DNA of 64,000 nt from an uncultured Gammaproteobacteria bacterium (GTDB lineage Bacteria > Patescibacteriota > Microgenomatia > Daviesbacterales > UBA10151): positions 21,543 to 85,542 of the forward strand of contig CAYQAW010000004.1 in the NCBI GenBank assembly GCA_964415615.1. The letters are read 5' to 3'. Position 1 is the stretch's first letter; each line of letters opens with the position of its first letter. The notes under the pieces were generated by a model. The model did no database searches. It worked only from the letters and a program-made list of their open reading frames with translations, and was not told the origin of the DNA. Shown piece by piece: positions 35,305 through 64,000 of this stretch. A program made the position numbers and the translations under genes.

Positions 35305-35310
35305 AAATAA

Positions 35311-46200: not shown

Positions 46201-47475
46201 ATGCTTAGATCTATTTTTAAAACCGCAACATTTAAGCAATCGCAAATCACAACGGTAGGGACTGTTCTAAATGGAGGACTGGGGGCTCTTTTTTATGTTT
46301 TGCTAGCCAGATTTATGGGGCCTGCTGAGTTTGGGTTGCTGACCATCTCCATAACTACATTAGTGCTTATAGCAGATATTGCGGATATAGGTACAAATAC
46401 AGGTTTGATTCGCTTTGTTTCCTTAAATATGGCGCAAAATAGAGAAAAGGGCTTAAAGTTTTTAAAATTAAGTTTAGAAATAAAGCTAGTAGCATGGCTT
46501 TTAGCGTTTATAACCATCTTTCTATTGTCTCCATTTTTGGCAAATCAAATTTTCCATAAGCCTGAGCTAATTTGGCCACTTAGGCTTGTGGGGTTTGGTG
46601 TGGGAGGAGCATTGCTTTTTAGTTTTGTTACCTCTAGCTTGCAGGCGTTCCAGAGGTATTTTATGTGGAGTATGGTAAATATTGTCACTAACGCTTTACG
46701 TCTGGTTTTGGTTTTTGTTTTGGGCTATTACCTGCTGATCAATGTTGAAAGTGTTTTATTTGTGTATGTTCTCTTACCTTTTTTTGGGTTTTTTTTGACA
46801 CTTTTTATTCTGCCAAGCAGGGATGTATTTAGAGCAAAAGATGAATTCAATTTACTTCAGGAACTTCTAAAGTATAATATGTCGGTAGCTCTTTTTTCGA
46901 TTTTTGCCGCATTTTCCGCTAGATTAGATACTTTTCTAAATGCAGCTTTGCTTTCCAGCAGAGAAGTGGGTATTTATGGAGCGGCGAATCAGTTGGTTCA
47001 AATTATGCCTCAACTAGTGTCAGCCTTGGGATTAGTTTCAGCTCCCAAATTTGCCTCCTTTCAAAAAAATAATCAAATGCTGGTTTACTTTAAAAAGTTT
47101 CAGCTTTTTGTCTTAGGGCTGTGTTTGGTTGGGCTTTTAACCATTCCTATTTCAGCTTATCTGATTCCAATGCTTTTTGGTTCATCTTACCGTGAGGCGG
47201 TAACACCCTTTGTATATTTATTTTTAGGGCAGCTAATTTTTCTTTTCTCAATACCAGTGCATCATAGTATCATCTTTTATTTCGGTAGGCCAGATATTTT
47301 TATCTGGGTGGCTTTAGGGAATCTTGCGATAATTGGTGGTTTAGGATATTGGATGATTTCAAATTTTGGGATTATAGGTGCTGCTGTTACCGTACTTGTG
47401 GGCATGCTTTTTAATTTTGTATGTCCTTTAATTTGGTTATTTATTAAATTACGGAAATCAGGAGATAAAACATGA
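46201..47475 (+). CDS. Polysaccharide/O-unit flippase, MOP superfamily (Wzx-like)
   Basis: 424 aa with about 12 TM. The N-terminus 'VLNGGLGALFYVLLARFMGPAEFGLLTISITTLVLIADIADIGTNTGLIRF' is typical of the Polysacc_synt/Wzx family. Confidence 0.7.
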   Translation: MLRSIFKTATFKQSQITTVGTVLNGGLGALFYVLLARFMGPAEFGLLTISITTLVLIADIADIGTNTGLIRFVSLNMAQNREKGLKFLKLSLEIKLVAWLLAFITIFLLSPFLANQIFHKPELIWPLRLVGFGVGGALLFSFVTSSLQAFQRYFMWSMVNIVTNALRLVLVFVLGYYLLINVESVLFVYVLLPFFGFFLTLFILPSRDVFRAKDEFNLLQELLKYNMSVALFSIFAAFSARLDTFLNAALLSSREVGIYGAANQLVQIMPQLVSALGLVSAPKFASFQKNNQMLVYFKKFQLFVLGLCLVGLLTIPISAYLIPMLFGSSYREAVTPFVYLFLGQLIFLFSIPVHHSIIFYFGRPDIFIWVALGNLAIIGGLGYWMISNFGIIGAAVTVLVGMLFNFVCPLIWLFIKLRKSGDKT

Positions 47476-48269
47476 AAATCTGGGCTAATACAATTGTGCA
47501 TAATGAGGAAAATTTTATTTGGTTTGCTATCATGAGTGTTATAGATTATGTAGATAAAATTTTAGTTTGGGATACAGGCTCGACTGATCAAACAGTCGAA
47601 ATTATTAAAGAGATAATTAAGAAAAAGGGTGATAAGATTGAGTTTAAGGAGGTTGGTCTTACTGATAAATACGAATTTACTAAAATGCGCCAGGCTATGC
47701 TTGAGCAATCAAAGTGTGATTGGATCTTAGTTTTAGATGGAGATGAGATTTGGTGGGAAGATTCAATTAAACAACTAGCTAAAGAAATCAATAGCAAGGG
47801 AAAGAGTATTGAGGGGATAGTAGTGCCAATGGTTGTGCCGGTTGGAGATATTTATCATTTCCAAGAAGAGTTAGCTGGTAGGTATAAGTTATTAGGGAAA
47901 ATGGGTCATTATAACCTGAGGGTCATCAACAGGAATATTCCTGGTTTACATGTAGCTTTTCCATATGGGAGAGAAGGTTATTTTGATATTGATGGAAATG
48001 AGGTTCAAAAAAGAAAGAAGATAATTTTTTCTGATACGCCTTATCTTCATCTTACTCACTTGGTGAGATCAAAAAAGAAAAGAATAAACAATAAGCATAA
48101 ATTAGAGTTAGGGAAAAGCTGTTCTAATGATTTTAAATATCCAGGTGTTTTGTTAGCCTCTTGCCCTGCAATTGTTCCTAATCCTTGGAGAAAAATATCT
48201 AGAGCGGATTTGATAATTGCTAAAATGATGACTCCGTTTAGAATAGTTAAAAGAAAGATTTTATTTTAA
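47472..48269 (+). CDS. Glycosyltransferase family 2-like
   Basis: 'IVHNEENFIWFAIMSVIDYVDKILVWDTGSTDQT' and 'DWILVLDGDEIWWE' (DxD). Confidence 0.6.
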   Translation: MKIWANTIVHNEENFIWFAIMSVIDYVDKILVWDTGSTDQTVEIIKEIIKKKGDKIEFKEVGLTDKYEFTKMRQAMLEQSKCDWILVLDGDEIWWEDSIKQLAKEINSKGKSIEGIVVPMVVPVGDIYHFQEELAGRYKLLGKMGHYNLRVINRNIPGLHVAFPYGREGYFDIDGNEVQKRKKIIFSDTPYLHLTHLVRSKKKRINNKHKLELGKSCSNDFKYPGVLLASCPAIVPNPWRKISRADLIIAKMMTPFRIVKRKILF

Positions 48270-49959: not shown

Positions 49960-50661
49960 ATGAAAAATTCTAATTTTTATACTGGTACAAAGACTTTAGA
50001 AAGTATGAATGGAGCAAAATTTTATAATAGGTGGATCTTAAATAAATTTAAACATTTTTTAAAAGGAGATATTCTTGAAGTTGGTTGTGGGATAGGGAAT
50101 TTTTCTTCTGAATTATCCAAACACGGAAAAGTAACTGCTATTGATATAGATGTAGTTTTGATAAAAGAAATTAAAAATGAAAAAGAGTTTCAAATAGATG
50201 CTGGGTGGGGAGACATAGAAAAGGGTAAATATTTTTTTCAAGGAAAAACTTTTGATACAATTGTATGTTTAAATGTTTTGGAGCATATTAATCAAGATGT
50301 GCAAGCTTTAGAAAATATATTGAAGCTTATTAAAAAAGGAGGTAACTTGATTATCATAGTTCCGATTTATCAATTCTTATATGGAGAAATAGACAAAAAT
50401 ATTGGTCATTATCGGCGATATAACCCGCAGAGTATTATAAATCAGATTAAGAGTTTAGGATTGGAAATCATTTTATATAGAAAATTAAATTTCCTAGGTG
50501 CTATTGGATGGTTTTGTGCAGGCAGAGTTCTTAAAGATAAACATGTTGAGGCAGATAGGTTGTACTTATTTAATATTTTAGCACCGTTTTTTCTGGCCAT
50601 GGAAGATTTGATAGAACCACCAGTAGGTACTTCTATTATGATTATTGCGGAGAAGAAATAG
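49960..50661 (+). CDS. Class I SAM-dependent methyltransferase
   Basis: 'ILEVGCGIGNFSSEL' and 'DTIVCLNVLEHI'. Confidence 0.65.
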   Translation: MKNSNFYTGTKTLESMNGAKFYNRWILNKFKHFLKGDILEVGCGIGNFSSELSKHGKVTAIDIDVVLIKEIKNEKEFQIDAGWGDIEKGKYFFQGKTFDTIVCLNVLEHINQDVQALENILKLIKKGGNLIIIVPIYQFLYGEIDKNIGHYRRYNPQSIINQIKSLGLEIILYRKLNFLGAIGWFCAGRVLKDKHVEADRLYLFNILAPFFLAMEDLIEPPVGTSIMIIAEKK

Positions 50662-51381
50662 ATGAAACTTTCAATAATAATTCCTGTTTATGATGAAGAA
50701 AAAACAATAATGCAAATGATAAATAAAGTGAGCAAGATTAAACTGCAAGGCGCTATAAAAAAAGAGATTATAGTAGTGGATGATGGGTCGACCGATAACA
50801 CCGCAAAGGCATTATCAAAATTTAAAATTAAAAATAGCGGACAATTTAAATCTCTAAGACATGAAAAAAATAAAGGTAAAGGTGCAGCAATTAGAACGGG
50901 CATAAAAAATTCATCGGGTGATTTCATAATAATTCAGGATGCGGATTTAGAATATGATCCAGATGATTATTCAAAGCTTTTAGAGAAGATTATTAAAAGA
51001 GACGCTTTAGTGGTATATGGTTCGAGGTTGATGAATTATCCATTAAACTTATGGGGAAAAGATAAAACGGTTTTACCAACCCATTTAATAGCTAATAAGT
51101 TTTTGACATTCCTAACAAATCTTTTATTTCAAAGTCATTTAACAGACATGGAGACAGGGTATAAACTTTTTAATAGAAAGATTTTAGAAGATTTAAATTT
51201 AAAATCCAATAATTTTGATTTTGAAGCTGAAATAACTGCTAAAATATTAAAGCATAAAATTTCTATTTATGAAGTCCCTATTGTAACTTGCCCTAGAACA
51301 TATCAAGAAGGTAAGAAGATTGGATGGAAAGATGGACTTACGGCAATTTGGACATTACTTAAGTTTCGCTTTGTTGAATGA
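50662..51381 (+). CDS. Polyprenyl-phosphate glycosyltransferase (GT2; DPM1/CsbB/GtrB/ArnC-like)
   Basis: '[14 protein letters not shown]', '[13 protein letters not shown]', '[11 protein letters not shown]' and '[12 protein letters not shown]' are collinear with dolichyl/undecaprenyl-phosphate sugar synthases. Confidence 0.8.
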
Positions 51382-51385
51382 TTTT

Positions 51386-52330
51386 ATGAAAGTATTATTT
51401 TTAAGCAGATACCAGAATAGTGTGGAAAGAGGCGCAGAGGTTTTTGTCAGTGAGCTTACTCAAAGATTAGCAGTAAATCATACTGTAGAGATTTTTTCCG
51501 ATAAAAAAGCAGATTCCTTAAAAGATGTATTAACAGCGAAGGCTGATGTAGTTATCCCTATAAATGGAAGGATACAAAGTTTAAAAGTTTCTTTAGGTAG
51601 ATTTATTGGAAGATATAAAATATTAATTTCAGGTCATAGCGGTAAAGGTTGGGATGATATTTGGAATATAGCAATTGTCAAACCAGATGTATTTGTGGCA
51701 TTAACAGATGAGATGAGCAATTGGGTAAAGAGATGGGCTTGGGGAAATAAGGTAGTTAAGATCCCAAACGGCGTGGATTTAAATAAATTTTCACCCAAAG
51801 GAGAAAAGATTGAACTTAACTTGAAAAAACCGATTATTTTATCGGTTGGAGCCTTGGCTTGGTATAAGCATCATGAATTGGAAATAAAGGCGGTAAGTAA
51901 ATTGAATGTAGGTTCACTACTGATAGTTGGAAAGGGGGAAGGGAAACCTGTCTTGGAAAGTTTGGGGAGACAGTTATTGGGTGATAGATTTAAAATAATG
52001 GATTTCTCCTATCAGGATATGCCTAAAGTCTACAGGTCTTGTGAAATTTTCACGCTGCCTTCCTGGAATAGGGAAGCTTTTGGAATTGCATATATTGAGG
52101 CGCTTGCTTCTGGTCTCGGAGTGATCGCTCCAGACGACCTACAGAGAAAAGAGATAATCGGTGGAGGGGGATTGTTTACTGATGTTAACGACTCGGTTCG
52201 ATATGCAGAAACAATAAAAAGAGCTTTAGAAATTGATTGGTCACAAAAAGCCAGGACGCAATCTGAAAAGTTTTCTTGGGAAAAGATCGCTTTGGAATAT
52301 GAAAAATTGATTTTGGATATGGTAGGATAA
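51386..52330 (+). CDS. Glycosyltransferase family 4
   Basis: 'EAFGIAYIEALASGLGVIAPD'. Start set at ATG 51386 (MKVLFLSRYQN). Confidence 0.65.
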   Translation: MKVLFLSRYQNSVERGAEVFVSELTQRLAVNHTVEIFSDKKADSLKDVLTAKADVVIPINGRIQSLKVSLGRFIGRYKILISGHSGKGWDDIWNIAIVKPDVFVALTDEMSNWVKRWAWGNKVVKIPNGVDLNKFSPKGEKIELNLKKPIILSVGALAWYKHHELEIKAVSKLNVGSLLIVGKGEGKPVLESLGRQLLGDRFKIMDFSYQDMPKVYRSCEIFTLPSWNREAFGIAYIEALASGLGVIAPDDLQRKEIIGGGGLFTDVNDSVRYAETIKRALEIDWSQKARTQSEKFSWEKIALEYEKLILDMVG

Positions 52331-52331
52331 A

Positions 52332-53105
52332 TTGATTATGAAATTGGATCTAACTTCCTTTTATGAAAGCTCGGAAAGGCTGGAGTATCATCCCAGCTCT
52401 TTGATGATGAAAAAGAGGACTGGAATTAAAAGATTGATTGCTTTTGATGATAGGTTTGAAAGAGTAAAAAAAGAATTAGAAAAACTGATTACACAAAATG
52501 CAAACCTGCCTGTAAAAATATTAGATATTGGGATAGGGGACGGAGTATATGAGTTTAGTTTGAATGAAGAGATTAAGGCAAAATGTGAGTTTTTCGGAGT
52601 TGATATAAGCGAAAAACAGATGGCAAGAGTACGTAAGTTATTAAAAGAATCAAAAGTAGTAGATCTAAACTTGCAGAAATTACCATATCAGGCTAATAGT
52701 TTTGATATTGTTATTGTATCTGAGATTTTAGAACATGTTTTCTATCCAGAAAAAATACTTCAGGAAGCGCAAAGAGTCTTAAAGATAAATGGATTTATCA
52801 TTTTAACCTTTCCTAACTCTTCCTGTTTGCAGCTCAGACTGGGATTGCTATTTAAGGGTAGCTCACCGCTCTTAAATTACCCGGAAAATAAGGAACATAT
52901 CAGGTTTTTCTCAAGCTCTAATATTCAAAGCTTGCTAGATAATAGTGTCAAGCTTGTAAATAAAATAGGGGTAGGATCTTTTCTTTTTGACAAATGGAAT
53001 TTTATTTCCAAAATTCCTATGCCAAGACTAATACAGGTTGTGGGGAATAAATTTTTTCCTTCTTTGGCTTTAGGAAACATACTTATTTTACAGAAAAATG
53101 ATTAG
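52332..53105 (+). CDS. Class I SAM-dependent methyltransferase
   Basis: 'ILDIGIGDGVYE' and 'FDIVIVSEILEHV'. Confidence 0.6.
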   Translation: MIMKLDLTSFYESSERLEYHPSSLMMKKRTGIKRLIAFDDRFERVKKELEKLITQNANLPVKILDIGIGDGVYEFSLNEEIKAKCEFFGVDISEKQMARVRKLLKESKVVDLNLQKLPYQANSFDIVIVSEILEHVFYPEKILQEAQRVLKINGFIILTFPNSSCLQLRLGLLFKGSSPLLNYPENKEHIRFFSSSNIQSLLDNSVKLVNKIGVGSFLFDKWNFISKIPMPRLIQVVGNKFFPSLALGNILILQKND

Positions 53106-53838
53106 CGCAACAATTATCACATTAAATGAACAGGAAAAAATTGGCAAAGCTCTTGGAAGTCTAAAGGGTCTTGCTCAGGAAGTGATAGTGGTAGATTCGG
53201 GTAGCGATGACAGCACCTTAAGTATTTGTAAAGATTTTAAGGTGCAGATCTTTATACGCAAATTCGACAATTTCGCAAATCAAAAAAATTATGCGTTATC
53301 AAAAACAAAAGGGGATTGGATTATCTCTTTGGATGCTGATGAGGAAATATCACCTGCTTTAGCAAATGAGATTCGAGAGGCGATTAAAAGCAGTGAATAT
53401 GCAGCGTATTTAATCCCAAGGAGAAATTTTATTCTAGGCGCGGAAATAAAATATTCGAGGTGGAGTCCAGACAGGCATATCTGGTTATGGAAGAAGAATA
53501 GCGGTAAATGGGTAGGAGGCGTTCATGAGGAGGTGGTTGTCAGTGGTAAAATAGGTAAGCTTGTACATAGCAAGATACATAATTCGCATAAAACATTAAA
53601 TGAATTTATCGAGACGAATAATCTATACTCTTCTTTAGAAGCAGAAAATTGGATAAAAAATAACAAAAAATTTTCTGCCTGGAATATGTTTTCAGATGCG
53701 CTACTTGAGTTTTTCTTAAGATTTTTATATAAAAAGGGATTTTTGGATGGAAGCAAGGGGTTTGCGCTTGCATATATGATGGGAATTTATAAATTAACAG
53801 TCTGGATTAAACTTTGGGAGCTGGAGAGAAGAAAATGA
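53098..53838 (+). CDS. Glycosyltransferase family 2
   Basis: 'ISATIITLNEQEKIGKALGSL...EVIVVDSGSDDST' and 'ISLDADEEI' (DxD). Confidence 0.7.
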   Translation: MISATIITLNEQEKIGKALGSLKGLAQEVIVVDSGSDDSTLSICKDFKVQIFIRKFDNFANQKNYALSKTKGDWIISLDADEEISPALANEIREAIKSSEYAAYLIPRRNFILGAEIKYSRWSPDRHIWLWKKNSGKWVGGVHEEVVVSGKIGKLVHSKIHNSHKTLNEFIETNNLYSSLEAENWIKNNKKFSAWNMFSDALLEFFLRFLYKKGFLDGSKGFALAYMMGIYKLTVWIKLWELERRK

Positions 53839-55253
53839 TATGGTTTATTTTGGGAATTGGTTTAATCCTCCGCCTTATTAGTTTAAATCAGAGCTTATGG
53901 CTGGATGAGGCCATTAATATTGTTGCTTCACAGAAATTTTCCTTTTTGGGGATAATAACTCAATATGCTGTTGCTGATTTTCATCCACCCGGATGGTTTG
54001 CTATTCTATGGATTTGGGGGAGAACTTTTGGTTATTCAGAGATTGCAATGAGATTGCCTTCTGTCATTTTTGGCGTAGTAACAATATATGTAACTTATCT
54101 TCTTGGTAAAAAGTTAATCTCTAAAAATCTAGGACTTTTGGCAGCATTACTTATTGCTATTAACCCTTTGCATATTTATTACAGCCAAGAGGCAAGAATG
54201 TATGCATTGGCAACGCTTGCTGTTGCTATAAATATTTTCCTGTGGGTTAAAATATTGAAGGATGAAAAAGTTAGTATATGGTTACTGGTATCAAGCAACT
54301 TGTTAGTTTTGTCTTCAGACTATGTGTCATATTTAATTTTTCCCGCCCAATTTATATTGCTTATTTCTTCTAAGAGAAAGTTCATTAAGATATGGGTTAT
54401 AGGGTTGCTTGGCGCTGTATTGCTGATGATTTGGTGGTTACCTATATTTTTGAAACAATTATCAGTAGGGTCTGTGGCATCTGCTAATTTACCAACTTGG
54501 AAGTTTGTAGTGGGAGGATTTGATCTAAAGGCTATTCCTCTAACTTTTGTAAAATTCATTATAGGTAGAATTAGCCTGGCTGATAAATTTCTATACTTAC
54601 TGTTTTTAGCGCCGGTCTGTTCGTTATTTTTGTTTCTTTTATTTAGAGGAATTAAATTAATAAAAGGTATTAACCGCTTTCTTTTAATATTATGGATTAG
54701 CATCCCTGTTCTCTTGGCTAGCCTGAGTTCACTGATAATACCTATCTACAGCTATTTTAGGTTGATGTTTACTCTGCCGATATTCTTACTTTTGACTGCT
54801 TTAGGCGTTATCTCTTTTAAATCTAAATTAAGATATTTATTTTTGGGAACAGTAGTATTTATTCAATTACTATCTGTTTTATTGTATCTTTTCAATGGTG
54901 CATACCAAAGAGAAGATTGGCGGGGATTAGTGAGTTATCTCAAATCAGTTAATCAGGAGCCAATAGTATTGTTCGAGAGTTCGGGAACTTTACCTCCGTT
55001 TGATTATTATGCTAAAAATGAGATAAATGCGATAGGAGCTCTTAAAGACTTTCCTGCTAAAAATATAGGGGATGTAATTGATTTAAAAACAGCATTAAAA
55101 GGATCAACTGATATTTTTCTGGTTAATTACTTAATTGATATTAGTGATCCTAATAGATTGGTTGCTCAAATGCTAGATGAGTCAGGATATAGTTTGTTTG
55201 ACACAAAAGACTTTAACGGAGTAGGCTTTGTGTACCATTATGTTAGGAAATAA
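53814..55253 (+). CDS. GT-C membrane glycosyltransferase, family 39/83 (ArnT/PMT-like)
   Basis: 'LWLDEAINIVASQ' (DE motif), 'DFHPPGWF', 'RLPSVIFG', 'NPLHIYYSQEARMYAL' and about 11 TM helices. Confidence 0.7.
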   Translation: MGAGEKKMIWFILGIGLILRLISLNQSLWLDEAINIVASQKFSFLGIITQYAVADFHPPGWFAILWIWGRTFGYSEIAMRLPSVIFGVVTIYVTYLLGKKLISKNLGLLAALLIAINPLHIYYSQEARMYALATLAVAINIFLWVKILKDEKVSIWLLVSSNLLVLSSDYVSYLIFPAQFILLISSKRKFIKIWVIGLLGAVLLMIWWLPIFLKQLSVGSVASANLPTWKFVVGGFDLKAIPLTFVKFIIGRISLADKFLYLLFLAPVCSLFLFLLFRGIKLIKGINRFLLILWISIPVLLASLSSLIIPIYSYFRLMFTLPIFLLLTALGVISFKSKLRYLFLGTVVFIQLLSVLLYLFNGAYQREDWRGLVSYLKSVNQEPIVLFESSGTLPPFDYYAKNEINAIGALKDFPAKNIGDVIDLKTALKGSTDIFLVNYLIDISDPNRLVAQMLDESGYSLFDTKDFNGVGFVYHYVRK

Positions 55254-56586
55254 AATAGCAGTAATTTTTTTGACATTGATAATAATATCTCATGCTTTTA
55301 TCTTAACAAAGATAATTTTCTTTCCGTATCCAGAACTTTTTATATATCCATATTTGACTAATCATGGACTTAAGCCCTATGCACAAATTTTAGATCAACA
55401 TTTTCCAGGACTAATGTTTTTACCTCTCAACTTTGATAATTTGGGAATGAATAATGAGGTAGCAGCACGGGTATGGTTGATAGGTATAGTAATTATAACC
55501 CAAGTCCTATTATTTTTTATTGCGAGGCATTTTATAAAGAGTAACTATAAAGCCCTGCTGGTAAATGTACTGTATCTGGCTTGGCAGCCGTTTTTTGAAG
55601 GATGGAACTTATGGATAGACAATTTTTTACCTATTGTTTTATTGCCAGCTTTTTACTCTGTATATAAAAAGAAATTCATTTTTACAGGAGTACTTATAGG
55701 GATGGGAGTAATATTTAAGCAGACTCTTATTCCTTTATCTATTTTAGTTTTATTCTATATATTTTGGTCAGAAAGAAATCTAAAAATGGGATTAAAGTAT
55801 CTTTTGGGAGTAATTCCACCGGTAGCTTTAATGGTCTTATATTTTGTTGATATTGGTGTATTTCCGGATTTCTGGTATTGGACTGTTGTTTTTAATCTGA
55901 CTATTTATGCTGCAGCTGGTACACAAATACCTACCAGTATCGGTTTCATTTCCCGAGTTTTGTTTGTTTACGCAGCTTCTTTATTTTCTATTTTTTTCAA
56001 ACATAAACGACTTGTAATTATTTTCTTAATGTTTTTAACAGGTTCTTTAGTTGGAGCATTTGATCGGGCAAATTTTGTACATTTTCAGCCATCTTTGCCT
56101 CTTGCTATTTTGGGAACAGTTCTGGGTTTTTTCTCACTTCCCAAAAAGAAAATGATCTTATCGTTTGGCTTGTATTTAGTAGTGTTAATATGGTGGCAGA
56201 ACATTTTCTATAAAGGGCATATTTCTAATAAAGTGTTATTCTTTGATCAACAAACTTATGCCTTGGCAAATAAGATCAAAAAATACACTAAGCCTGGTGA
56301 GAAGATCTTTGTGTTTGGAGCTGCTCCTCATTTGTATCAAATGTCGCAAACTTTACCTGCTGGTAATGTTTTTGTTTTTCAGTTTCCCTGGTTTTTGAAA
56401 GTAGCGCAGGAGAGGATACTTGAGGGAATTAAACTAGATCAACCGGAAATTATAGTAGCAGATAGAACAGCGGAAACTGAGAACATTAAGATTACTGATT
56501 TTGCTAAGGATCTTGATCAATATATTCAAAAAAATTATCAAGTAATTGATAGTGTTGGAACTGCAGAGATTTTGCATAGGAGGTAA
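55240..56586 (+). CDS. Polytopic membrane protein (unknown; possible GT-C)
   Basis: About 450 aa, hydrophobic. Start set at ATG 55240 (MLGNKIAV), which overlaps the upstream gene by 14 bp. Confidence 0.5.
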   Translation: MLGNKIAVIFLTLIIISHAFILTKIIFFPYPELFIYPYLTNHGLKPYAQILDQHFPGLMFLPLNFDNLGMNNEVAARVWLIGIVIITQVLLFFIARHFIKSNYKALLVNVLYLAWQPFFEGWNLWIDNFLPIVLLPAFYSVYKKKFIFTGVLIGMGVIFKQTLIPLSILVLFYIFWSERNLKMGLKYLLGVIPPVALMVLYFVDIGVFPDFWYWTVVFNLTIYAAAGTQIPTSIGFISRVLFVYAASLFSIFFKHKRLVIIFLMFLTGSLVGAFDRANFVHFQPSLPLAILGTVLGFFSLPKKKMILSFGLYLVVLIWWQNIFYKGHISNKVLFFDQQTYALANKIKKYTKPGEKIFVFGAAPHLYQMSQTLPAGNVFVFQFPWFLKVAQERILEGIKLDQPEIIVADRTAETENIKITDFAKDLDQYIQKNYQVIDSVGTAEILHRR

Positions 56587-56595
56587 AATAATTAC

Positions 56596-57621
56596 GTGGA
56601 TAAAAAAATACGAGTTGGAATGGATATATCACAACTAGCTCATCAGGGAGGGGTTATTAGTTATACTAAGCAAATTGCTGAAGGACTAGGCCATATTAGC
56701 AATTTAGATATGGTCTATTTTTATTCTTCCTTAAGACAGATCTATAAAGGCAATCTAAAAAATGTGAAATCTTTTAGATTGCCTCCGACTTTTTTTGAAA
56801 TGCTTTTTAATAGCTGGAGGAATGTTAATATTGAAAGATTTATTGGCCCGATTGATATTTTCCATAGTTCTGATTGGGTCCAGCCTCCAAGTAAAGCAAA
56901 AAAGGTTACTACTTATCATGATGTGGTACCTTTAAAATACCCTCAATGGTCACACCCTAAAATAGTGGCCGTACATAAAGAAAGATTGAAAATAGTTGAA
57001 GAAGAAATTGATATGGTGATAGCTGTTTCAGAATCTACAAAGAGAGATTTGTTGGAAATTTCTACAATACCTGAAGAAAAAATAATAGTAATTTATGAAG
57101 GAGTAGGAGAACAATTTAAACCACAATCCGAAGATGATATAAAACTATTTAGACAAAAGTACAATTTGCCAGAAAAATTTATTTTAGCTATAGGTGGAGT
57201 TGGCGAAAGGAAAAACTTAACGAGAGTCAAGAAAGCAGCTGGGAAATATAATTTAGTTATTGCTGGAGTAACTATTCCTTGGGTATCATCTGATGAGTTA
57301 CCACTTCTTTACAGCTCAGCTGAGATGTTATTGTATCCATCATTATATGAAGGTTTTGGTTTGCCAGTTTTGGAGGCAATGGCTTGTGGTATACCGGTTA
57401 TTACATCAAATGTATCAAGTATGCCAGAAGTTGGTGGAGATGCAGTGATTTATGTTGATCCATTAAATACTGATGATATATCGGAGAAATTAAAAGAACT
57501 CTTAATAAGAAGAGACTTAACGAAGGACGTGATAATAAAGGGATTCGAACAAGTCAAAAAATTCTCCTGGGAGAAAGCTACTGAAGAAATGTACTCAGTT
57601 TATAGGAAACTTATCAGTTAA
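56596..57621 (+). CDS. Glycosyltransferase family 4
   Basis: 'EGFGLPVLEAMACGIPVITSNVSSMPEVGGDA'. GTG start in the ORF track; ATG at 56620 is an alternative. Confidence 0.7.
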   Translation: MDKKIRVGMDISQLAHQGGVISYTKQIAEGLGHISNLDMVYFYSSLRQIYKGNLKNVKSFRLPPTFFEMLFNSWRNVNIERFIGPIDIFHSSDWVQPPSKAKKVTTYHDVVPLKYPQWSHPKIVAVHKERLKIVEEEIDMVIAVSESTKRDLLEISTIPEEKIIVIYEGVGEQFKPQSEDDIKLFRQKYNLPEKFILAIGGVGERKNLTRVKKAAGKYNLVIAGVTIPWVSSDELPLLYSSAEMLLYPSLYEGFGLPVLEAMACGIPVITSNVSSMPEVGGDAVIYVDPLNTDDISEKLKELLIRRDLTKDVIIKGFEQVKKFSWEKATEEMYSVYRKLIS

Positions 57622-59148
57622 ATGATTAAATTACTTTGGAAAAGGAAAATATTGTTTTTTATTATTGTTTTAATTTGCTTTGCAGCTTTTCTCAGATTTT
57701 ATAATCTTTCAAATATTTATATATTTAACTTTGATGAAGAATATCAAGCTACGTATGCAATGACATTGGTAAAACATTTGCATCCGATTTGGATAGGTGT
57801 AAGCGCAGGGTTTGTGGATTTTTACATGGGTCCTTATTTTACTTACTTTACCGCTTTTTTTCTTTGGCTTTCTAAAGGAGATCCTTTAATTACAGCATAT
57901 GTTGCAGGTCTAACCGGAGTAGTAACATCGGTAGTTGTATTTTTAGTGGGAAGGAAGTTTTTTAATTTGACTACTGGAGTTATTGGTTCGCTGCTTTATG
58001 CAGGATCACCACTGATAGTTTTTTATGATCAAAAATATTGGAATCCAATGTTTGTTCAGCTAATAGTACTTTTGATGTTTGTATCAATTATGCTTATAAG
58101 GAAATCTGCCTGGTGGTGGGTTTTGTATGCAGCTTTGGTTGGTGTTATTTTTGAGACTGATTTGTTGCCGATACCGCTAGTATTAATCGGTATCTGGCTT
58201 TTCATAAAAGGAAAATATTTTTTGAACAAAAAGTTAGTTTTGGCTTGTGTAATGATTTTTATATTACTCTATTGGCCTCTTCTAGTATTTGACTATGTTC
58301 ATAACTTTAGCAATTTAACTATTTTGGGCCGTTATAGCGAGCAAGCAAAAAAAGTTGGGGCAAAAATTGAACCCCAGAAAAAAATACTTTCAATTGTAGA
58401 TACTATGGGGAGGTTATGGTATTTAAAACCAGGAAGTTCAAATGCTGATGAAATAAGTACAGCTTGTTATGCATTATCAGCAAAGCCAGAGGCTAGTTTT
58501 ATAACAAAATATACCCAAAGGACAGTTCCCAATTTGGGATTAATAATATTATCTATTGGTTTGCTTTTATCCTTTTTATTCATTAGTTTTAAGGTTAAGA
58601 ATAAAGCTTATCATCTTTTGGCGTGTTTTATATTACTCTCGCTTGGATTTTACATATTTTATTCCGGAGGTTCATTTGAGTATTATCTTCATGGTTTTGT
58701 GACATTATTCATCTTTACTCCGGGGATTGTTATTAGTCAGGTATATAAAAAATACAGGCCATTATTTTACCCTTTAGTAGGAATTGTATTAATATTGGGA
58801 ATCTATACAGTATTAAATACTTCAGATAGTTTTAGTTTAGGCGCTAAAAAGAAATTAATTACGAAAGTTATGAATGTGGTATCAGATCAAAAGTTTTCAA
58901 TTGATGGACGAGGTGCTTGTCATAATTGGGAAGGGTGGAGATATCTATTTAAGGTTTACGGAAAGACACCTGCCAGCAGCTATACTGATCAAAATTTTGA
59001 ATGGTTGTATCCTCAAGAAGTTTATAAAGGTAAAGTTTCTTATGAGGTGATTCTTGCGGAATCAAGAATACCTTTTGATAAAGATATGAGTGGATACGAT
59101 AGAATAGACGAAGGAGGCTATTCGGCTTATATCAGAAAAACTCAATGA
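57622..59148 (+). CDS. GT-C membrane glycosyltransferase, GT39-like
   Basis: 'NFDEEYQATYAMTL' (DE motif in first loop). Multiple TM helices. Hydrophilic C-terminal ~150 aa. Confidence 0.55.
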   Translation: MIKLLWKRKILFFIIVLICFAAFLRFYNLSNIYIFNFDEEYQATYAMTLVKHLHPIWIGVSAGFVDFYMGPYFTYFTAFFLWLSKGDPLITAYVAGLTGVVTSVVVFLVGRKFFNLTTGVIGSLLYAGSPLIVFYDQKYWNPMFVQLIVLLMFVSIMLIRKSAWWWVLYAALVGVIFETDLLPIPLVLIGIWLFIKGKYFLNKKLVLACVMIFILLYWPLLVFDYVHNFSNLTILGRYSEQAKKVGAKIEPQKKILSIVDTMGRLWYLKPGSSNADEISTACYALSAKPEASFITKYTQRTVPNLGLIILSIGLLLSFLFISFKVKNKAYHLLACFILLSLGFYIFYSGGSFEYYLHGFVTLFIFTPGIVISQVYKKYRPLFYPLVGIVLILGIYTVLNTSDSFSLGAKKKLITKVMNVVSDQKFSIDGRGACHNWEGWRYLFKVYGKTPASSYTDQNFEWLYPQEVYKGKVSYEVILAESRIPFDKDMSGYDRIDEGGYSAYIRKTQ

Positions 59149-60233
59149 AAATAGCGCTAGATGGATATGAGGCAAATGTTTCTCAAAGACTGGGGTCATC
59201 TCGGGTGGCTTTTGAGTTGCTAAAAAGTCTGGAAAAAATTGACAGTAAAAATGACTATACATTTTTGTTACCTACTCCCCCGCTTGCAGATTTACCAAAG
59301 GATAGAGAAGGTTGGAAGTACAAAATTTTAAAGCCCAAAAAGCTTTGGACAAGGATTGCGCTGCCTATATTTTTATATACAGCAAAACAAAAACCAGATA
59401 TATTTTTTTCTCCGACACACTATATTCCAAGATTTGTGCCAGCATCAATTAAAAAGGTTGTCACAATATTTGATTTGTCTTTTTTGCACTTTCCGGAGAT
59501 GTTTACAAGCCGCGATTTATGGCAGCTTACAAACTGGACTAAATTTTCTGCAAGTCAAGCTGATCATATAATTACAATTTCTGAGTTTTCTAAACAGGAT
59601 ATTATTTCCCAATACAAAATAGATAAAAATAAAATTACAGTTGCTTATCCTGGTTTTGATAAAGAAAATTACAAGCCTAAAGGTAAAAAACCAGGTAATT
59701 ACATAATATATATAGGGACTATTCAGCCAAGAAAAAATTTAATCAGACTGATGGAGGCTGTTTCCAGGATAGAAAATCTCAATTTAATTATTGTTGGTAA
59801 GACTGAAGGTGAAGGTAGGCAGGGGTGGATGTATGAGGATATTTTACAGACTCCTAAAAAATTAGGCATAGAGGATAGGGTAAAATTTTTAGGGTTCATA
59901 CCAACTGCAGAATTAAAAATACTTTTGTCAGGAGCAGCAGCTTATATACAGCCTTCTTTATGGGAAGGATTTGGTATTCCAGTGGTGGAAGCGATGGCTA
60001 CAGGTGTACCAGTTCTTGTTTCTAATGATTCATCTTTGCCTGAGGTGGTAGGGAAGGCGGGATTACTCTTTGATCCATATTCTGTTGATCAAATAGAGCA
60101 GGCAATCAGAACTATTGTGGCTGATAATAAATTAAGAGAGAAATATTCAAAAGCAGGAATCATTCAGGCCCAAAAATTTTCCTGGGATAAAATGGCAGAG
60201 ATAGTTTTAAAAGTGTTTGGAGATACGGTATAA
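59145..60233 (+). CDS. Glycosyltransferase family 4
   Basis: '[33 protein letters not shown]'. Confidence 0.7.
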
Positions 60234-60240
60234 TCAATCC

Positions 60241-60843
60241 ATGGCTTTATTTGAAGATAGAATGGGTAAATCTTTGAGTGTCAGCGAAGCTTTGAGAAAA
60301 ATTGCTAACAGATTATTTAATTGGGTTTTAGATTTGGAGTTGTTAATTGTTGCTTTATCAGGATGCGTGCCTTCTCATTTATTCCGTCTACTTATATACA
60401 GGTTGGCTGGAATAAAAATAGGGAAAGATTCCAGGATTCATATGGGAGCCAGATTCTTTTATCTTGCAAATATACAAATAGGGACTGGAACAATTATTGG
60501 CGATCATGTTTTTTTGGATGGCAGGGATAAATTAACAATTGGTGATCATGTGGATATTGCATCTGCTGTGATGATTTACAGCAGTGAGCATAATGTAAAT
60601 TCAGAAGATTTTCATGCAATCTCCGCGCCTGTTGAAATAGAGGACTATGTTTTTATTGGCCCCAGAGCAATAATTCTGCCTGGAGTCAGGATTGGTAAAG
60701 GAGCTGTGGTTGGAGCAGGCGCGGTCGTGACTAAAAATGTTGATGAATACCAGATCGTTGGAGGTGTACCAGCTCAAGTTATAGGTGAAAGGAAATTGAA
60801 AAATCCGCATTATAAATTAGGACGGGCAAGACTTTTTCAATGA
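60241..60843 (+). CDS. Hexapeptide-repeat sugar O-acetyltransferase
   Basis: 'IGTGTIIGDHVFLDG...IGDHVDIASAVMIYSSEH...FIGPRAIILPGVRIGKGAVVGAGAVVTKNV' is the LbH acetyltransferase signature. Start set at ATG 60241. Confidence 0.7.
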   Translation: MALFEDRMGKSLSVSEALRKIANRLFNWVLDLELLIVALSGCVPSHLFRLLIYRLAGIKIGKDSRIHMGARFFYLANIQIGTGTIIGDHVFLDGRDKLTIGDHVDIASAVMIYSSEHNVNSEDFHAISAPVEIEDYVFIGPRAIILPGVRIGKGAVVGAGAVVTKNVDEYQIVGGVPAQVIGERKLKNPHYKLGRARLFQ

Positions 60844-61388
60844 TTAAAAAAAAATTATTCGTAGCTTTTTCGGTACTGCTTTTTGTTTATATGCTTTGGC
60901 CGGGGCCAAGCAAGATTTCCGATTTTAAATCACTTCCTTCCTCATATAAGTCAACACTGGAAGGAGATACGGTACAGATACCTAATGTGGCAGGGTATTT
61001 TTCAAATAATTTTAGAGGGTTTGTAGTTCCTTTCTATTTAAAGGATTATCAAAGTGTAAGCCATTTTCCATTTCCTCCACTAAGATTAAACCGCCCTCCA
61101 GAATACTCATGGATAGCTATAAAAAAACATACAGACAGCACTTATATAGAAGAATTAGTTTATCCCTTGAGAGATTCATTATATGTTAATGGTTTTGAAC
61201 CATTTTACTCAGACGGAAAACCAAAATTTTGGGGTTCAACTATGTTTCCAATTTCAGGTCAGAATTGGTTTACTAAAACTACAATCCGATTTTATCCATC
61301 TGGGCTGATTGTAAGACTTGTAGTGTGGTTTGGAATTACAGCTTCAATTTATTTGTTATTTAAAATGGGAAGGAAAATTTTAAACTAA
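60840..61388 (+). CDS. Hypothetical protein with N- and C-terminal TM anchors
   Basis: 182-aa ORF in the operon with overlapping start/stop. No recognisable family. Confidence 0.45.
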   Translation: MIKKKLFVAFSVLLFVYMLWPGPSKISDFKSLPSSYKSTLEGDTVQIPNVAGYFSNNFRGFVVPFYLKDYQSVSHFPFPPLRLNRPPEYSWIAIKKHTDSTYIEELVYPLRDSLYVNGFEPFYSDGKPKFWGSTMFPISGQNWFTKTTIRFYPSGLIVRLVVWFGITASIYLLFKMGRKILN

Positions 61389-61389
61389 A

Positions 61390-62808
61390 ATGTTCAAATT
61401 TTTAACCCTGTCTAATATATTGCTAATTTTGATAATTTTCCTTTTTATCTTTATCCCACTGTACCCAAAATTTCCATTGCTTAATATTGCAGGAACTTTT
61501 GTGGCGATTAGGATTGAGGACTTACTAATTGGTCTAACAGTCTTTCTCTGGGGGGTTTATATGGTGTTATCAAATCAGTTAAGAGATCTTTTGCGAGATA
61601 AATTGACTAAGGCTATATTATTATTTTTCTTTATTGGCGCTGTTTCTACTTTCTCAGCTATTTTTTTGACTCATACGGTAATTTCTCACATCAGCTTTCT
61701 ACATTTTTTCAGGAGAATTGAATTTATGATGTTGTTGCCTATTGTGGCCAGTGTGATCAAAACTAAAAAACAACTGATTGGAATTTTAGTTATCTTATTC
61801 TTGACAGTTTTATTGGTTAATTTATATGCTTTAGGCCAGCAGTATTTGGACTGGCCGGTTATTTCTACAACTAATTCTGAATTTTCAAAAGGATTAATTT
61901 TAAGTTTAACCCCTGGCGCCAGGGTCAATTCAACTTTTGCCGGACATTATGATTTGGCAGTATTTTTGGCGATGACTATTTCAATACTGACAGCTCTATT
62001 TTTTGCAGTTAAAAAGAGGATAAAAATATTGATTGTTATGTTGGGACTGTTAACTCTTCTTATTTTGATAATGACAGCAGCCAGACTTTCTTTTGTGGCT
62101 GCTTTTATCGGGATTATTTTTGCGCTTATTTTTACAAAGAAAACAAAGTATATTCTATTTATTCTTGTCGGAGTAGCAGTTATTTTAATATATCCTTCCC
62201 AGCTTAGAGACCGTTTTATTTCAACTATTACTGTTAATCTTTTTTCTCAGGGACAAAGATATGTAGGACAAACACAGGATCAGCAAGTTAGGAGTCAGCT
62301 TAATATTCCAACACTTGCAGTGAAAACTTCAAGTACATCTGCGTCTACTTCTGCTTTTGCCAGTCCTTCCGGTAAGACAGCAACAGATATTACGCCTGGT
62401 GAACCAATTGATACTACAGAGCTGGGAGTTTACCGGTCTTTTCAAATTAGATTAAATATTGAATGGCCAAGAGCTGTAACTGCTTTTATGAAAAATCCAT
62501 TCCTGGGAACAGGCTATTCTTCTTTGGATATAGCAACGGATAATGATTTTTTAAGATCTTTGGGAGAAGTTGGATTTTTAGGAACTGCGGGATTTGTTTT
62601 AGTTCTTATAGAAATTGCAAAAAGAATATTCTCCTGCCTAAAAAATGAAGATAAACTGATTAGATTTTTTTCCGCGGGAGTATTATCTATGTTTGTCGCG
62701 TTTATTGTTAATGGATTATTTATAGATGTATTTGAGGCATCAAAAGTGGCCTCACTTTTTTGGATGATGTTAGGATTAAATCTTGCGGTATTTAAAATAA
62801 AATCATGA
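61390..62808 (+). CDS. O-antigen ligase/polymerase-like (Wzy_C-type) polytopic membrane protein
   Basis: 472 aa with about 10 TM. An interior Ser/Thr-rich hydrophilic loop is followed by further TM helices, the Wzy/WaaL-like architecture. Assignment tentative. Confidence 0.45.
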   Translation: MFKFLTLSNILLILIIFLFIFIPLYPKFPLLNIAGTFVAIRIEDLLIGLTVFLWGVYMVLSNQLRDLLRDKLTKAILLFFFIGAVSTFSAIFLTHTVISHISFLHFFRRIEFMMLLPIVASVIKTKKQLIGILVILFLTVLLVNLYALGQQYLDWPVISTTNSEFSKGLILSLTPGARVNSTFAGHYDLAVFLAMTISILTALFFAVKKRIKILIVMLGLLTLLILIMTAARLSFVAAFIGIIFALIFTKKTKYILFILVGVAVILIYPSQLRDRFISTITVNLFSQGQRYVGQTQDQQVRSQLNIPTLAVKTSSTSASTSAFASPSGKTATDITPGEPIDTTELGVYRSFQIRLNIEWPRAVTAFMKNPFLGTGYSSLDIATDNDFLRSLGEVGFLGTAGFVLVLIEIAKRIFSCLKNEDKLIRFFSAGVLSMFVAFIVNGLFIDVFEASKVASLFWMMLGLNLAVFKIKS

Positions 62809-64000
62809 AAATATTCAAAATCTTTACAAATCAATATTTCTGGGTTTTACTGATAATTATAGGAGGCCTGCTGGTCAGGCTTTATAAAATTGACTCGCCA
62901 ATTGCAGATTGGCATTCCTGGAGACAGGCAGATACGGCAGCTGTAACCAGAAATTTTATAAAAGAGGGTTTTAATCCCTTTTTCCCGAAATATGATGATA
63001 TGACAGGAGTATCTGAACATCCAGTTGTAAATCCTGCGAGATTCCGTTTTGTGGAGTTTCCCTTATATAATATTTTTGTTTATCCGTTTTATTTAGTGTT
63101 TGGCATAAATGATCAATTTCACCGGTTAGTATCTGTTCTATTCTCTCTGGGCAGCACAGCTATTTTATTTTTTATTGTAAGAAAATATACAAGTGTTTTT
63201 GTAGGTTTAGCTTCTGCTTTTGTGTTTGCCTTTTTACCCTTTAATGTTTTTTTTAGCAGAACAACTTTGCCTGAGCCAACTTTTATCTTTTTTGCATTAG
63301 GGATGATTTATTTTGTAGGGAATTGGATTGAGAAGGGTCGGGGAATTTTGGGAATTCAGGGAATTTGGGGATTTATCTTTACAGCAATTGCATTTTTGAT
63401 AAAACCGTGGGCGATATTTTTCTTTTTACCTTTAATATATTCAGTTTTTGTTACAAAGAATACTGGAAGATTTTGGATTAAATTTATTCTATTTACAACT
63501 CTTGCTTTGCTACCCTTTATTTTATGGAGGCTTTGGATATTGCAGCAACCTCAAGGGATTCCGGCCTCAAGTTGGTTAGTAAATAGTGATGGAATACGTT
63601 TTAGACCCGCATTTTGGTGGTGGATAGTTTCCGAACGGATGGGGCGGGAAATACTTGGAGCAACAGGGCTAGTATTATTTTTTATTGGATTTCTCAGCAG
63701 ACCAAAGAACGGAAAATACTTTTTGCATATTTGGGCTTTATCTTCTTTTCTATTTATAGTAATTTTTGCAACAGGCAATGTTAGACACAATTATTACCAA
63801 TCACAATTTATCCCTATTGGTAGTATTTTTTTCTCTTTAGGTTTTGTGCAGCTTTTAAAAGGAAGCAATCAATTTATTGCAAGAATATGGACAATACTTA
63901 TTGCATTAATTTTGTTCCCGCTGTCTTTTTACTTTGGATTTAAAATTGTTAAAGAATTTTATAATATAAACAATCCTGTGATTGTTGAGGCAGGTAAGAA
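62805..64000 (+). CDS. GT-C membrane glycosyltransferase, GT39/ArnT-like (partial, continues beyond window)
   Basis: I translated it by hand from ATG 62805 and found no stop through 64000. 'DSPIADWHSWRQADTAAVTRNF' is the characteristic first periplasmic loop of bacterial GT39/GT83 enzymes. Multiple TM helices. Confidence 0.65.
   Translation, partial: MKIFKIFTNQYFWVLLIIIGGLLVRLYKIDSPIADWHSWRQADTAAVTRNFIKEGFNPFFPKYDDMTGVSEHPVVNPARFRFVEFPLYNIFVYPFYLVFGINDQFHRLVSVLFSLGSTAILFFIVRKYTSVFVGLASAFVFAFLPFNVFFSRTTLPEPTFIFFALGMIYFVGNWIEKGRGILGIQGIWGFIFTAIAFLIKPWAIFFFLPLIYSVFVTKNTGRFWIKFILFTTLALLPFILWRLWILQQPQGIPASSWLVNSDGIRFRPAFWWWIVSERMGREILGATGLVLFFIGFLSRPKNGKYFLHIWALSSFLFIVIFATGNVRHNYYQSQFIPIGSIFFSLGFVQLLKGSNQFIARIWTILIALILFPLSFYFGFKIVKEFYNINNPVIVEAGK

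Follow-up and report, generated by a model that had tools for sequence, protein, structure and literature searches.

What does a locus assemble, and on which face of the membrane, when one gene for a family 2 glycosyltransferase (GT2) lies in it among many genes for polytopic membrane transferases? This question is raised by a 64,000-nucleotide stretch of contig CAYQAW010000004.1 (assembly GCA_964415615.1; hereafter, the window), in which the GT2 gene at 50662 is surrounded by genes for membrane glycosyltransferases of the GT-C fold. The original prediction was of an outer-face glycosylation system in which the GT2 makes a lipid-phosphate-sugar and the GT-C enzymes use it. Our analysis indicates that this is the right frame but that the system is a hybrid, i.e., a Wzx/Wzy-type lipid-linked glycan pathway combined with a multi-component outer-face glycosylation system, and not a pure GtrABC-like one. 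We think it fairly probable that the locus makes up the 3' half of a conserved operon for a cell-envelope glycan, with two coupled routes, in an organism near Candidatus Daviesbacteria (Microgenomates; Patescibacteria, or Candidate Phyla Radiation, CPR).

Genes are named here by their first nucleotide in the window (Table 1). The open reading frames (ORFs) named in the original prediction are all present on the plus strand. Starts were taken from gene callers run on the identical Logan contig L001, which differ slightly from the longest ORFs at three genes (51332 versus 51320, 53835 versus 53814, and 55240, as in the original prediction, versus 55228).

The GT2 protein 50662 and polyprenyl-phosphate sugar synthases

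By sequence and by modeled fold, 50662 is closest to the polyprenyl-phosphate glycosyltransferases dolichyl-phosphate mannose synthase (DPMS), ArnC, and GtrB, in agreement with its initial description as a polyprenyl- or dolichyl-phosphate sugar synthase. In a phmmer search of the PDB, the first seven rows were all DPMS, ArnC, or GtrB; PfDPMS was matched at 6.7e-17 over residues 1–218, ArnC at ~5e-14, and GtrB at 5e-11, whereas ordinary GT2s aligned in the N-terminal (nucleotide-binding) half alone. The best NCBIfam model was AglJ, matched over nearly its full length at 106.8 bits (cutoff 325), followed by PgfS (73.3; cutoff 500), PpgS (72.5; cutoff 370), and ArnC (64.7; cutoff 529). An AlphaFold2 (AF2) model built with 32 homologs reached a predicted local distance difference test score (pLDDT) of 85.2 and a predicted template-modeling score (pTM) of 0.85, and its best 22 Foldseek matches in the PDB were all ArnC, GtrB, or DPMS, with template-modeling scores (TM-scores) of 0.62–0.77.

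To assign residue roles, the alignment of 50662 with PfDPMS was read against the published description of that enzyme (PMC5526996), and invariance was judged in an alignment of the 32 homologs. Residues E12, D89, D91, R117, F177, R202, and K208 of PfDPMS correspond to E12, D93, D95, R122, F185, R212, and K218 of 50662, all of them invariant in the 32 homologs. The catalytic Asp residues required of such a GT-A-fold synthase (D93 and D95 of the DxD motif, aligned with D89 and D91) are in place. In PfDPMS, R117 is assigned to the phosphate of dolichyl phosphate (Dol-P), F177 is the gate, and R202 and K208 belong to the A-loop, while the acceptor phosphate is bound by R117, R131, and S135 (PMC5526996); R131 aligns with K135 of 50662, which is likewise invariant. 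The base-binding D39 of DPMS has its counterpart in D41; as UDP- and GDP-using enzymes share this Asp, it does not reveal the donor sugar. In the model, two hydrophobic helices (139–156 and 222–237) sit where the interface helices of DPMS lie and could be interfacial as well.

Two further GT2s of the locus, 47472 and 53098, gave GmaR (2.9e-7 and 7.5e-16, respectively) and SunS as their nearest PDB sequence matches, mostly over the generic N-terminal half. GmaR is a flagellin O-GlcNAc transferase. As these two proteins resemble GmaR and SunS and not polyprenyl-phosphate synthases, 50662 is the only candidate donor synthase in the core of the locus.

Several features of 50662 speak against the assignment. 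It scores far under every NCBIfam equivalog cutoff, and the ordinary GT2s WrtF and GpgS, which rank next in Foldseek after the 22 polyprenyl-phosphate enzymes, have E-values just ~3 orders of magnitude weaker. Its motif reads D93-A-D95-L-E97, and E97, also invariant in the 32 homologs, takes the place of the metal-binding Gln of DxDxQ (PMC5526996, PMC10821137). DPMS, GtrB, and WpsA carry DADLQ, in which the Gln coordinates the metal (PMC5526996, PMC10821137); the Glu of 50662 could still bind it. The acceptor-phosphate residue S135 of PfDPMS is replaced by P139, and K178 by D186. Moreover, 50662 has no transmembrane (TM) helix, as no hydropathy peak was found, and Pfam scans of the window detected no GacJ/WpsB-like partner. 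Of the full motif set first attributed to the protein, then, the DxD is present, while the motif is DADLE rather than DADLQ and the TM anchor is missing. A TM-less polyprenyl-phosphate glycosyltransferase nonetheless has a biochemical precedent: the Lactococcus enzyme WpsA has no TM segment and makes GlcNAc-P-C55 together with the small membrane protein WpsB (PMC10821137).

The low equivalog scores, the DxDxE motif, the lack of a TM helix, and the strong Foldseek matches to general GT2s would also suit an ordinary cytoplasmic GT2 that extends a lipid-linked repeat unit, in which case the GT-C enzymes would draw their donors from elsewhere in the genome or from polyprenyl-diphosphate-linked glycans. 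We regard this as improbable. Full-length sequence matches were obtained for polyprenyl-phosphate and Dol-P hexose transferases only, the phosphate-binding Arg and the A-loop residues are conserved, and the two hydrophobic helices are placed as the DPMS interface helices are. The significant adjacency to GT-C genes across phyla, described below, also argues against it.

Linkage of the GT2 family to GT-C genes

More than 8000 homologs of 50662 were scored, of which the best 120 are all 61–72% identical to it; the few source names among these 120 point mostly to Candidatus Daviesbacteria or Patescibacteria. At 44–52% identity, relatives come from Chloroflexota, Actinomycetota, Bacteroidota, Acidobacteriota, Elusimicrobia, Planctomycetota, Saccharibacteria, and archaeal metagenome-assembled genomes (MAGs). 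In this 44–52% identity set, the ORF caller recovered the GT2 in 63 loci, and in 20 of them the gene directly adjacent encodes a protein of 380–1100 aa with at least seven TM helices, against an expectation of 9.3% taken from genes at least three positions away (binomial p = 6e-7). Half of the sampled polytopic neighbors (5 of 10) pass the PMT_2 threshold. In one Patescibacteria MAG (locus L076), the GT2 belongs to an array that also holds a YfhO gene and an uninterrupted run of six PMT_2-type genes, of which five exceed the gathering score. At another locus (L014), the GT2 has PMT_2-type genes downstream of it and a YfhO gene two positions upstream. That this GT2 is found repeatedly with GT-C arrays is what one would expect of a donor synthase.

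The array of L076 (DASYZL010000001.1) also encodes, at 1741..3813, a 690-aa fusion protein whose PMT-like GT-C region falls slightly short of the Pfam threshold and whose C terminus is a PBP_dimer (penicillin-binding-protein dimerization) domain. A GT-C fused to PBP_dimer hints at coupling to peptidoglycan.

These observations invite a broader proposal, namely that the ~235-aa, TM-less "DADLEYDP" GT2 family is a widespread class of polyprenyl-phosphate sugar synthase feeding GT-C arrays in many phyla, and that in Daviesbacteria its single product supplies at least nine GT-Cs that build most of a major envelope glycopolymer outside the membrane. We put this forward tentatively and consider it more doubtful than not.

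GT-C glycosyltransferases of the locus

The original prediction placed at least five GT-C proteins around 50662. At least five PMT_2-type GT-Cs are indeed found there, and the complement is larger than was claimed, with four AftD-like proteins and a sixth PMT_2-like gene upstream (17623), so that the window encodes at least 10 GT-C-type proteins and one Wzy_C protein. The gathering score of PMT_2 (PF13231; ArnT/GT83-like clan) is 26.1 bits; 48414, 53835, 57622, and 62805 exceed it, and 55240 and 17623 fall below it (Table 1). The GT-C candidates are all polytopic, with 7–10 hydropathy peaks, and every PMT_2-like protein carries an acidic motif in the loop that follows TM1, as shown for 53835, 57622, 55240, and 17623 in Table 1 and as D35/D43 for 62805. 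These motifs were seen in the sequence alone, except in 55240, for which there is an AF2 model. In addition, 53835 matches the Agl23-like model of NCBIfam at 47.8 bits, below its cutoff.

Among the five around 50662, the weakest case is 55240. Its family comprises 553 detected homologs, in which D52 is invariant, and about one-third of the 120 listed carry a precomputed PF13231 match. The AF2 model (pLDDT 86.6, pTM 0.87) retrieved GT-C enzymes only: yeast and mammalian STT3, PglB, DPY19, ArnT, ALG12, AftA, ALG3, AftB, PimE, ALG6, and Pmt1/2, with the highest TM-score (0.61) for ArnT. None of the GT-C proteins classifies as a transporter; that identity was rejected for the polytopic proteins, as RND pumps appeared in the 55240 search only at E > 1 and with TM-scores of ~0.1. 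Accordingly, two of the three genes first listed simply as further polytopic proteins, 48414 and 55240, encode GT-Cs, whereas the third, 61390, belongs to Wzy_C, a family distinct from PMT_2, and not to GT39.

The relation of the GT-Cs to solved structures came from this fold comparison of 55240 and not from sequence searches. Searches of the PDB by sequence with 53814, 62805, and 40289 and with the profiles of the 55240 and 62805 families returned nothing useful, and the 62805-family profile found no solved PMT or ArnT. The PMT_2 paralogs are extremely diverged from one another: phmmer detected no pairwise similarity among them, hhalign gave 0.9% probability for the 55240 family against the 62805 family, and 53835 matched the 62805-family profile at 81% probability but over just 60 columns. 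They are old, specialized paralogs and not recent duplicates.

Four very large proteins (12295, 36357, 40289, and 43487) share one AftD-like architecture, in which a bundle of TM helices at the N terminus is followed by a large extracytoplasmic domain and, at the C terminus, by a TM anchor; 43487 is tied to the others by profile comparison alone. The small 4-TM protein 39938, encoded between the tandem AftD-like genes, is kept in synteny in Daviesbacteria relatives (L003, 3441–3749; L005, 1670–1957) and could be a partner subunit or a flippase. Its identity as GtrA, SMR, or DUF2304 (GacJ/WpsB) was rejected, as no Pfam match was obtained even at E <= 10.

Two other polytopic proteins are encoded upstream, at 29990..32407 on the minus strand (805 aa, ~13 TM) and at 20607..22484 on the plus strand (625 aa, ~10 TM). 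They gave no significant match in Pfam at E <= 10 or in hhalign against the 62805-family profile, the sole trace being a weak TMEM260-like one (E = 0.025). Both may be additional divergent GT-Cs.

The GT-Cs had originally been described as GT39/ArnT-like, of which the PMT_2 GT-C part holds and the GT39 part was not borne out, with no window protein matching PF02366 (PMT) at E <= 0.01. Orthologs of 62805 (63–93% identity) are nonetheless named "glycosyltransferase family 39 protein" by NCBI, and about one-quarter of the 120 listed carry a precomputed PF02366 match. Such annotations are what would be cited for a different role, in which some PMT_2 proteins, most plausibly the 62805 family, would be protein O-glycosyltransferases that use the lipid-phosphate-sugar of 50662, as in actinobacterial Ppm1–Pmt. 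The targets would be proteins that are secreted or exposed at the surface, for instance pilins or S-layer-like proteins, and the Wzy_C protein could alternatively be a PglL-type O-oligosaccharyltransferase, Wzy_C being a domain that is also found in PglL/PilO enzymes. The GmaR and SunS matches of 53098 and 47472 point the same way, though mainly in the generic N-terminal half. We nevertheless find protein glycosylation quite unlikely here: to the lack of PF02366 matches in the window and of solved PMT or ArnT structures in the 62805-family search are added an operon that encodes no candidate acceptor protein and a context that is mainly of the polysaccharide type (Wzx, GT4, methyltransferases, and acetyltransferase).

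Operon organization and the initiating enzyme

From 32547 to the end of the window run 25 ORFs, all on the plus strand, with just two gaps of ~145 bp. From 48414 on, neighboring genes overlap by up to 50 bp or are separated by no more than 33 bp, which points to one translationally coupled operon. A promoter and terminator scan of 43200–51000 gave counts no higher than those of shuffled controls. Besides 50662 and the GT-Cs, the stretch 32547–64000 encodes the Wzx-like protein 46201, which is the sole recognizable flippase in the window, the Wzy_C protein 61390, four GT4 and four further GT2 enzymes, three S-adenosylmethionine (SAM) methyltransferases, and one acetyltransferase. The operon is syntenic in three Daviesbacteria relatives (L003–L005).

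The original prediction noted that no initiating phosphoglycosyltransferase of the WecA/WbaP type is encoded anywhere in the 64 kb. This is true of the window, in which none of the scanned ORFs of at least 100 aa matched Glycos_transf_4 (WecA/MraY) or Bac_transf (WbaP), but it is most probably a window-edge effect because a Bac_transf gene follows the ortholog of the last gene in all relatives compared. For this comparison, we used four syntenic Daviesbacteria relatives, two of them NCBI MAGs and two JGI contigs (1.0–1.1 Mb), each with an ortholog of 62805 at 68–77% identity. All four carry the same succession of genes: Wzy_C, PMT_2, three GT4 genes (the third shortened to 184 aa in L091), Bac_transf (193–211 aa), DUF4012, RecO, and a class-II tRNA-synthetase-like gene. 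The Bac_transf protein is of the small, PglC/WbaP type, and its gene lies ~3.4 kb beyond the ortholog of the last gene. By synteny, the initiating enzyme is most probably encoded ~3.5 kb past position 64000, and the operon block would span from ~32.5 kb to roughly 7 kb past the window end.

In the same four relatives, Bac_transf is always followed by a DUF4012 protein of ~627 aa (L088, 15483..17366; L089, 15406..17289; L090, 13430..15313; L091, 13493..15373), a candidate for a role in export, chain length, or attachment.

The Bac_transf gene also bears on the possibility that 50662 initiates a polyprenyl-monophosphate-linked oligosaccharide instead of, or in addition to, making a monosaccharide donor. 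GT4 and GT2 enzymes would then extend the chain, Wzx 46201 would flip it, Wzy_C 61390 would polymerize it, and one GT-C would transfer it en bloc, as in the Lactococcus succession WpsA/WpsB, WpsC onward, WpsG, WpsH/I, and WpsJ or in AglJ-primed archaeal N-glycans. Indeed, AglJ is the top NCBIfam match of 50662, a GT4 gene directly flanks it, the Wzx gene is three genes away, and the window itself lacks a phosphoglycosyltransferase. In addition, the TM-less WpsA primes the polysaccharide pellicle (PSP) of Lactococcus on C55-P, in a pathway with a Wzx-type flippase, polymerization proteins, and a GT-C (PMC10821137). We still judge this course unlikely. With Bac_transf closing the orthologous operon in 4/4 relatives, a conventional diphosphate primer is at hand, and monophosphate priming in the style of Lactococcus is not required. 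No WpsB/GacJ-like activator was detected in the window, and en bloc transfer needs only one GT-C, which leaves the link of the GT2 to GT-C arrays unexplained.

Table 1. Coordinates and supporting evidence for features of the 64-kb window
Feature	Position	Strand	Evidence
Third close AftD-like GT-C paralog, 911 aa	12295..15030	+	phmmer vs 40289, E 3e-60
PMT_2-like polytopic protein, DD after TM1	17623..19149	+	PMT_2 23.4 bits, below gathering score
GT4, GT2, methyltransferase, and GT2 genes, head of co-directional block	32547..36363	+	Pfam, junctions
AftD-like large GT-C, 1194 aa, tandem paralog of 40289	36357..39941	+	phmmer vs 40289 1410 bits; 69% identity
Small 4-TM protein, 114 aa, between tandem AftD-like genes	39938..40282	+	Hydropathy
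AftD-like large GT-C, 1016 aa	40289..43339	+	GT-C_AftD (PF11847) 30.9 bits, gathering score 26
Remote AftD-like GT-C paralog, 901 aa	43487..46192	+	hhalign 99.5% probability, E 2.5e-22
Wzx-like MOP flippase	46201..47475	+	Polysacc_synt 78 bits, Polysacc_synt_3 71 bits; NCBIfam MOP flippase; 9 hydropathy peaks
Cytoplasmic GT2	47472..48269	+	Pfam 57 bits; best PDB sequence matches GmaR, SunS
PMT_2-type GT-C, 512 aa	48414..49952	+	PMT_2 42.3 bits; 10 hydropathy peaks
SAM-dependent methyltransferase	49960..50661	+	Methyltransf_23/11/12/25
GT2, 239 aa, candidate polyprenyl-phosphate sugar synthase	50662..51381	+	Glycos_transf_2 125 bits
GT4 (GT-B) cytoplasmic glycosyltransferase	51332..52330	+	Glycos_transf_1 78 bits; L001 start
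SAM-dependent methyltransferase	52332..53105	+	Methyltransf_11 71 bits
Cytoplasmic GT2	53098..53838	+	Pfam 66 bits; best PDB sequence match GmaR, 7.5e-16
PMT_2-type GT-C, DE motif after TM1	53835..55253	+	PMT_2 53.3 bits
Divergent GT-C, 448 aa, invariant D52 in first outer loop	55240..56586	+	PMT_2 24.2 bits, below gathering score; AF2 fold
GT4 glycosyltransferase	56620..57621	+	Glycos_transf_1 85.5 bits
PMT_2-type GT-C, DEE motif after TM1	57622..59148	+	PMT_2 28.4 bits
GT4 glycosyltransferase	59145..60233	+	Glycos_transf_1 128 bits
Hexapeptide-repeat acyl/acetyltransferase	60217..60843	+	Hexapep 64 bits
Conserved bitopic protein, 182 aa	60840..61388	+	Syntenic ORFs of 181–213 aa in relatives; no Pfam or NCBIfam match
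Wzy_C protein (polymerase, ligase, or O-oligosaccharyltransferase family)	61390..62808	+	Wzy_C 35.6 bits, gathering score 31.7
PMT_2-type GT-C, cut by window end; orthologs ~489 aa full length	62805..64000	+	PMT_2 42.9 bits

A proposed model with two coupled routes

In the first of the two proposed routes, which would begin on the inner face of the membrane, the small Bac_transf phosphoglycosyltransferase encoded beyond the window would prime a polyprenyl-diphosphate sugar. GT4 and GT2 enzymes would extend this primer, and the SAM methyltransferases and the hexapeptide acetyltransferase would modify it, after which the Wzx-like protein 46201 would flip the glycan and Wzy_C 61390 would polymerize or ligate it.

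From homology and gene linkage, we infer a second route, in which the TM-less 50662, working at the cytoplasmic surface of the membrane, would charge polyprenyl monophosphate with a sugar taken from a nucleotide sugar. The lipid-phosphate-sugar would then be flipped, perhaps by a Wzx-type protein, as with GacK, or by a protein encoded elsewhere. The GT-Cs would each take single residues from the flipped donor and attach them, in differing linkages, to the glycan and perhaps to proteins as well, the work probably being divided among the PMT_2-type proteins 48414, 53835, 55240, 57622, and 62805 and the AftD-like proteins 12295, 36357, 40289, and 43487. Among multi-component systems, variants with a TM-less GT-A enzyme are documented, as are variants with a Wzx-type flippase and variants whose GT-C belongs to PMT_2, to YfhO, or to no recognized family (PMC8035078).

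Apart from the features of 50662 itself, further points count against the model. One candidate synthase would have to serve at least nine GT-Cs, and it is possible that some of these use other donors, including polyprenyl-diphosphate oligosaccharides. No GtrA (PF04138) match was found among the scanned window ORFs of at least 100 aa. Finally, the evidence for Bac_transf comes from the DNA of relatives and not from the downstream DNA of the source organism itself.

Other features of the window

The window has a GC content of ~34%, and by Pfam scan its content is almost entirely glycan biosynthesis; judged by these family matches, the whole 64 kb is glycan-related. The cumulative GC skew climbs almost monotonically across it and most genes lie on the plus strand, which fits the leading strand of one replichore.

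A nucleotide-sugar block on the minus strand (23650..29921) encodes a sugar C-methyltransferase (Methyltransf_13/14), a UDP-glucose dehydrogenase-like protein, two epimerase/dehydratases, a nucleotidyltransferase, and a methyltransferase, a set suggesting that the glycan contains uronic as well as deoxy or branched sugars. Further upstream, the genes at 7683..12291 (for a GDPD-like phosphodiesterase, a hexapeptide transferase, an inositol-monophosphatase-like protein, two nucleotidyltransferases, and a HAD phosphatase) could serve the synthesis of an activated polyol or phospho-substituent, i.e., a teichoic-like decoration. The 328-aa protein encoded at 22651..23637 on the plus strand gave a 48-bit match to PF03385, the family of STELLO glycosyltransferases, whose most familiar members are plant Golgi proteins.

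Comparison with known glycosylation systems

Among the multi-component systems of Gram-positive bacteria (CsbB/GtcA/YfhO, GtlA/GtlB, CsdAB/CD/EF, and GacI/J/K/L; PMC8035078), the locus shares the arrangement of a predicted polyprenyl-phosphate-sugar GT-A beside PMT_2-type GT-Cs. As in GacI/J/K/L, a Wzx-type protein is encoded nearby (GacK in that system), and the TM-less GT-A may be viewed as a GacI/WpsA variant. It differs from these systems in having five to six PMT_2-type and four AftD-like GT-Cs per locus instead of one GT-A/GT-C pair, in the absence from the window of a GtrA-type flippase and of a GacJ/WpsB-like activator, in the DxDxE motif, and in its CPR host.

The PSP locus of Lactococcus (WpsA/WpsB, WpsC–F, WpsG, WpsH/I, and WpsJ; PMC10821137) likewise combines a TM-less DPMS-like GT2, elongating glycosyltransferases, Wzx, a polymerase-type protein, and a GT-C; it has one GT-C where the present locus has many, and it includes WpsB, of which no homolog was detected here.

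Mycobacterial and corynebacterial arabinogalactan and lipomannan assembly (AftA–D, Emb, and Mpt; PpgS–Rv3779) offers a parallel for what is apparently one lipid-phosphate-sugar donor for a battery of GT-Cs. In mycobacteria, arabinan and mannan are assembled in this way, with many GT-Cs drawing on a shared donor, polyprenyl-phosphomannose (PPM) or decaprenyl-phosphoryl-arabinose (DPA). The very large proteins with C-terminal extracytoplasmic domains resemble AftD, and PpgS, a short polyprenyl-phosphate-GalNAc synthase (226-position model), matches 50662 over its full length. Here, however, AftD is matched only marginally (30.9 bits), genes of the DPA pathway are absent, the phylum and the envelope differ, and the locus is embedded in a Wzx/Wzy-type operon.

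ArnC and GtrB, of the ArnC–ArnT and GtrA/B/C systems, are the nearest solved structures to 50662, and ArnT gave the top TM-score for 55240. Both enzymes carry DxDxQ and a pair of C-terminal TM helices, which 50662 lacks. The present locus has neither ArnE/F nor GtrA, and a monoderm-like CPR cell is not expected to contain lipid A or O-antigen, the acceptors of these systems.

Finally, the Wzx-like flippase, Wzy_C protein, GT4 and GT2 genes, methyl- and acetyltransferases, and nucleotide-sugar genes, together with Bac_transf in the relatives, are those of Wzx/Wzy loci for O-antigen, capsule, or exopolysaccharide. In contrast to such loci, no recognizable chain-length regulator was found here, the GT-C set is unusually large, and DUF4012 stands at the operon end.

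Implications

Every component can be placed in a family already known, and in public records the orthologs bear generic names ("glycosyltransferase family 2 protein," "glycosyltransferase family 39 protein," or "hypothetical protein"). What is unusual is the presence of at least 10 GT-Cs in one locus of an organism whose relatives have contigs of 0.77–1.15 Mb, and the TM-less DxDxE candidate donor synthase. In practical terms, the apparent lack of an initiating phosphoglycosyltransferase is corrected to a probable artifact of the window edge. Cells of the Patescibacteria, or CPR, are thought to live attached to hosts. Our literature search turned up no study that connects CPR bacteria to GT-C, GT39, or GT83 enzymes, and a recent perspective on Patescibacteria nowhere mentions glycans, polysaccharides, or S-layers (PMC11665869).

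If one donor does supply at least nine GT-Cs, this would be an assembly line in the style of mycobacterial arabinogalactan within a ~1-Mb genome, of which the glycan region of 64 kb or more makes up ~6%. Since the TM-less DxDxE GT2 occurs beside PMT_2 and YfhO genes in several phyla, it could be characterized in a cultivable organism. A large share of a ~1-Mb genome goes to one conserved operon in which at least 10 outer-face glycosyltransferases are encoded. This suggests a surface dominated by one glycopolymer that could mediate attachment, phage recognition, or envelope integrity, and it provides a defined gene set to look for.

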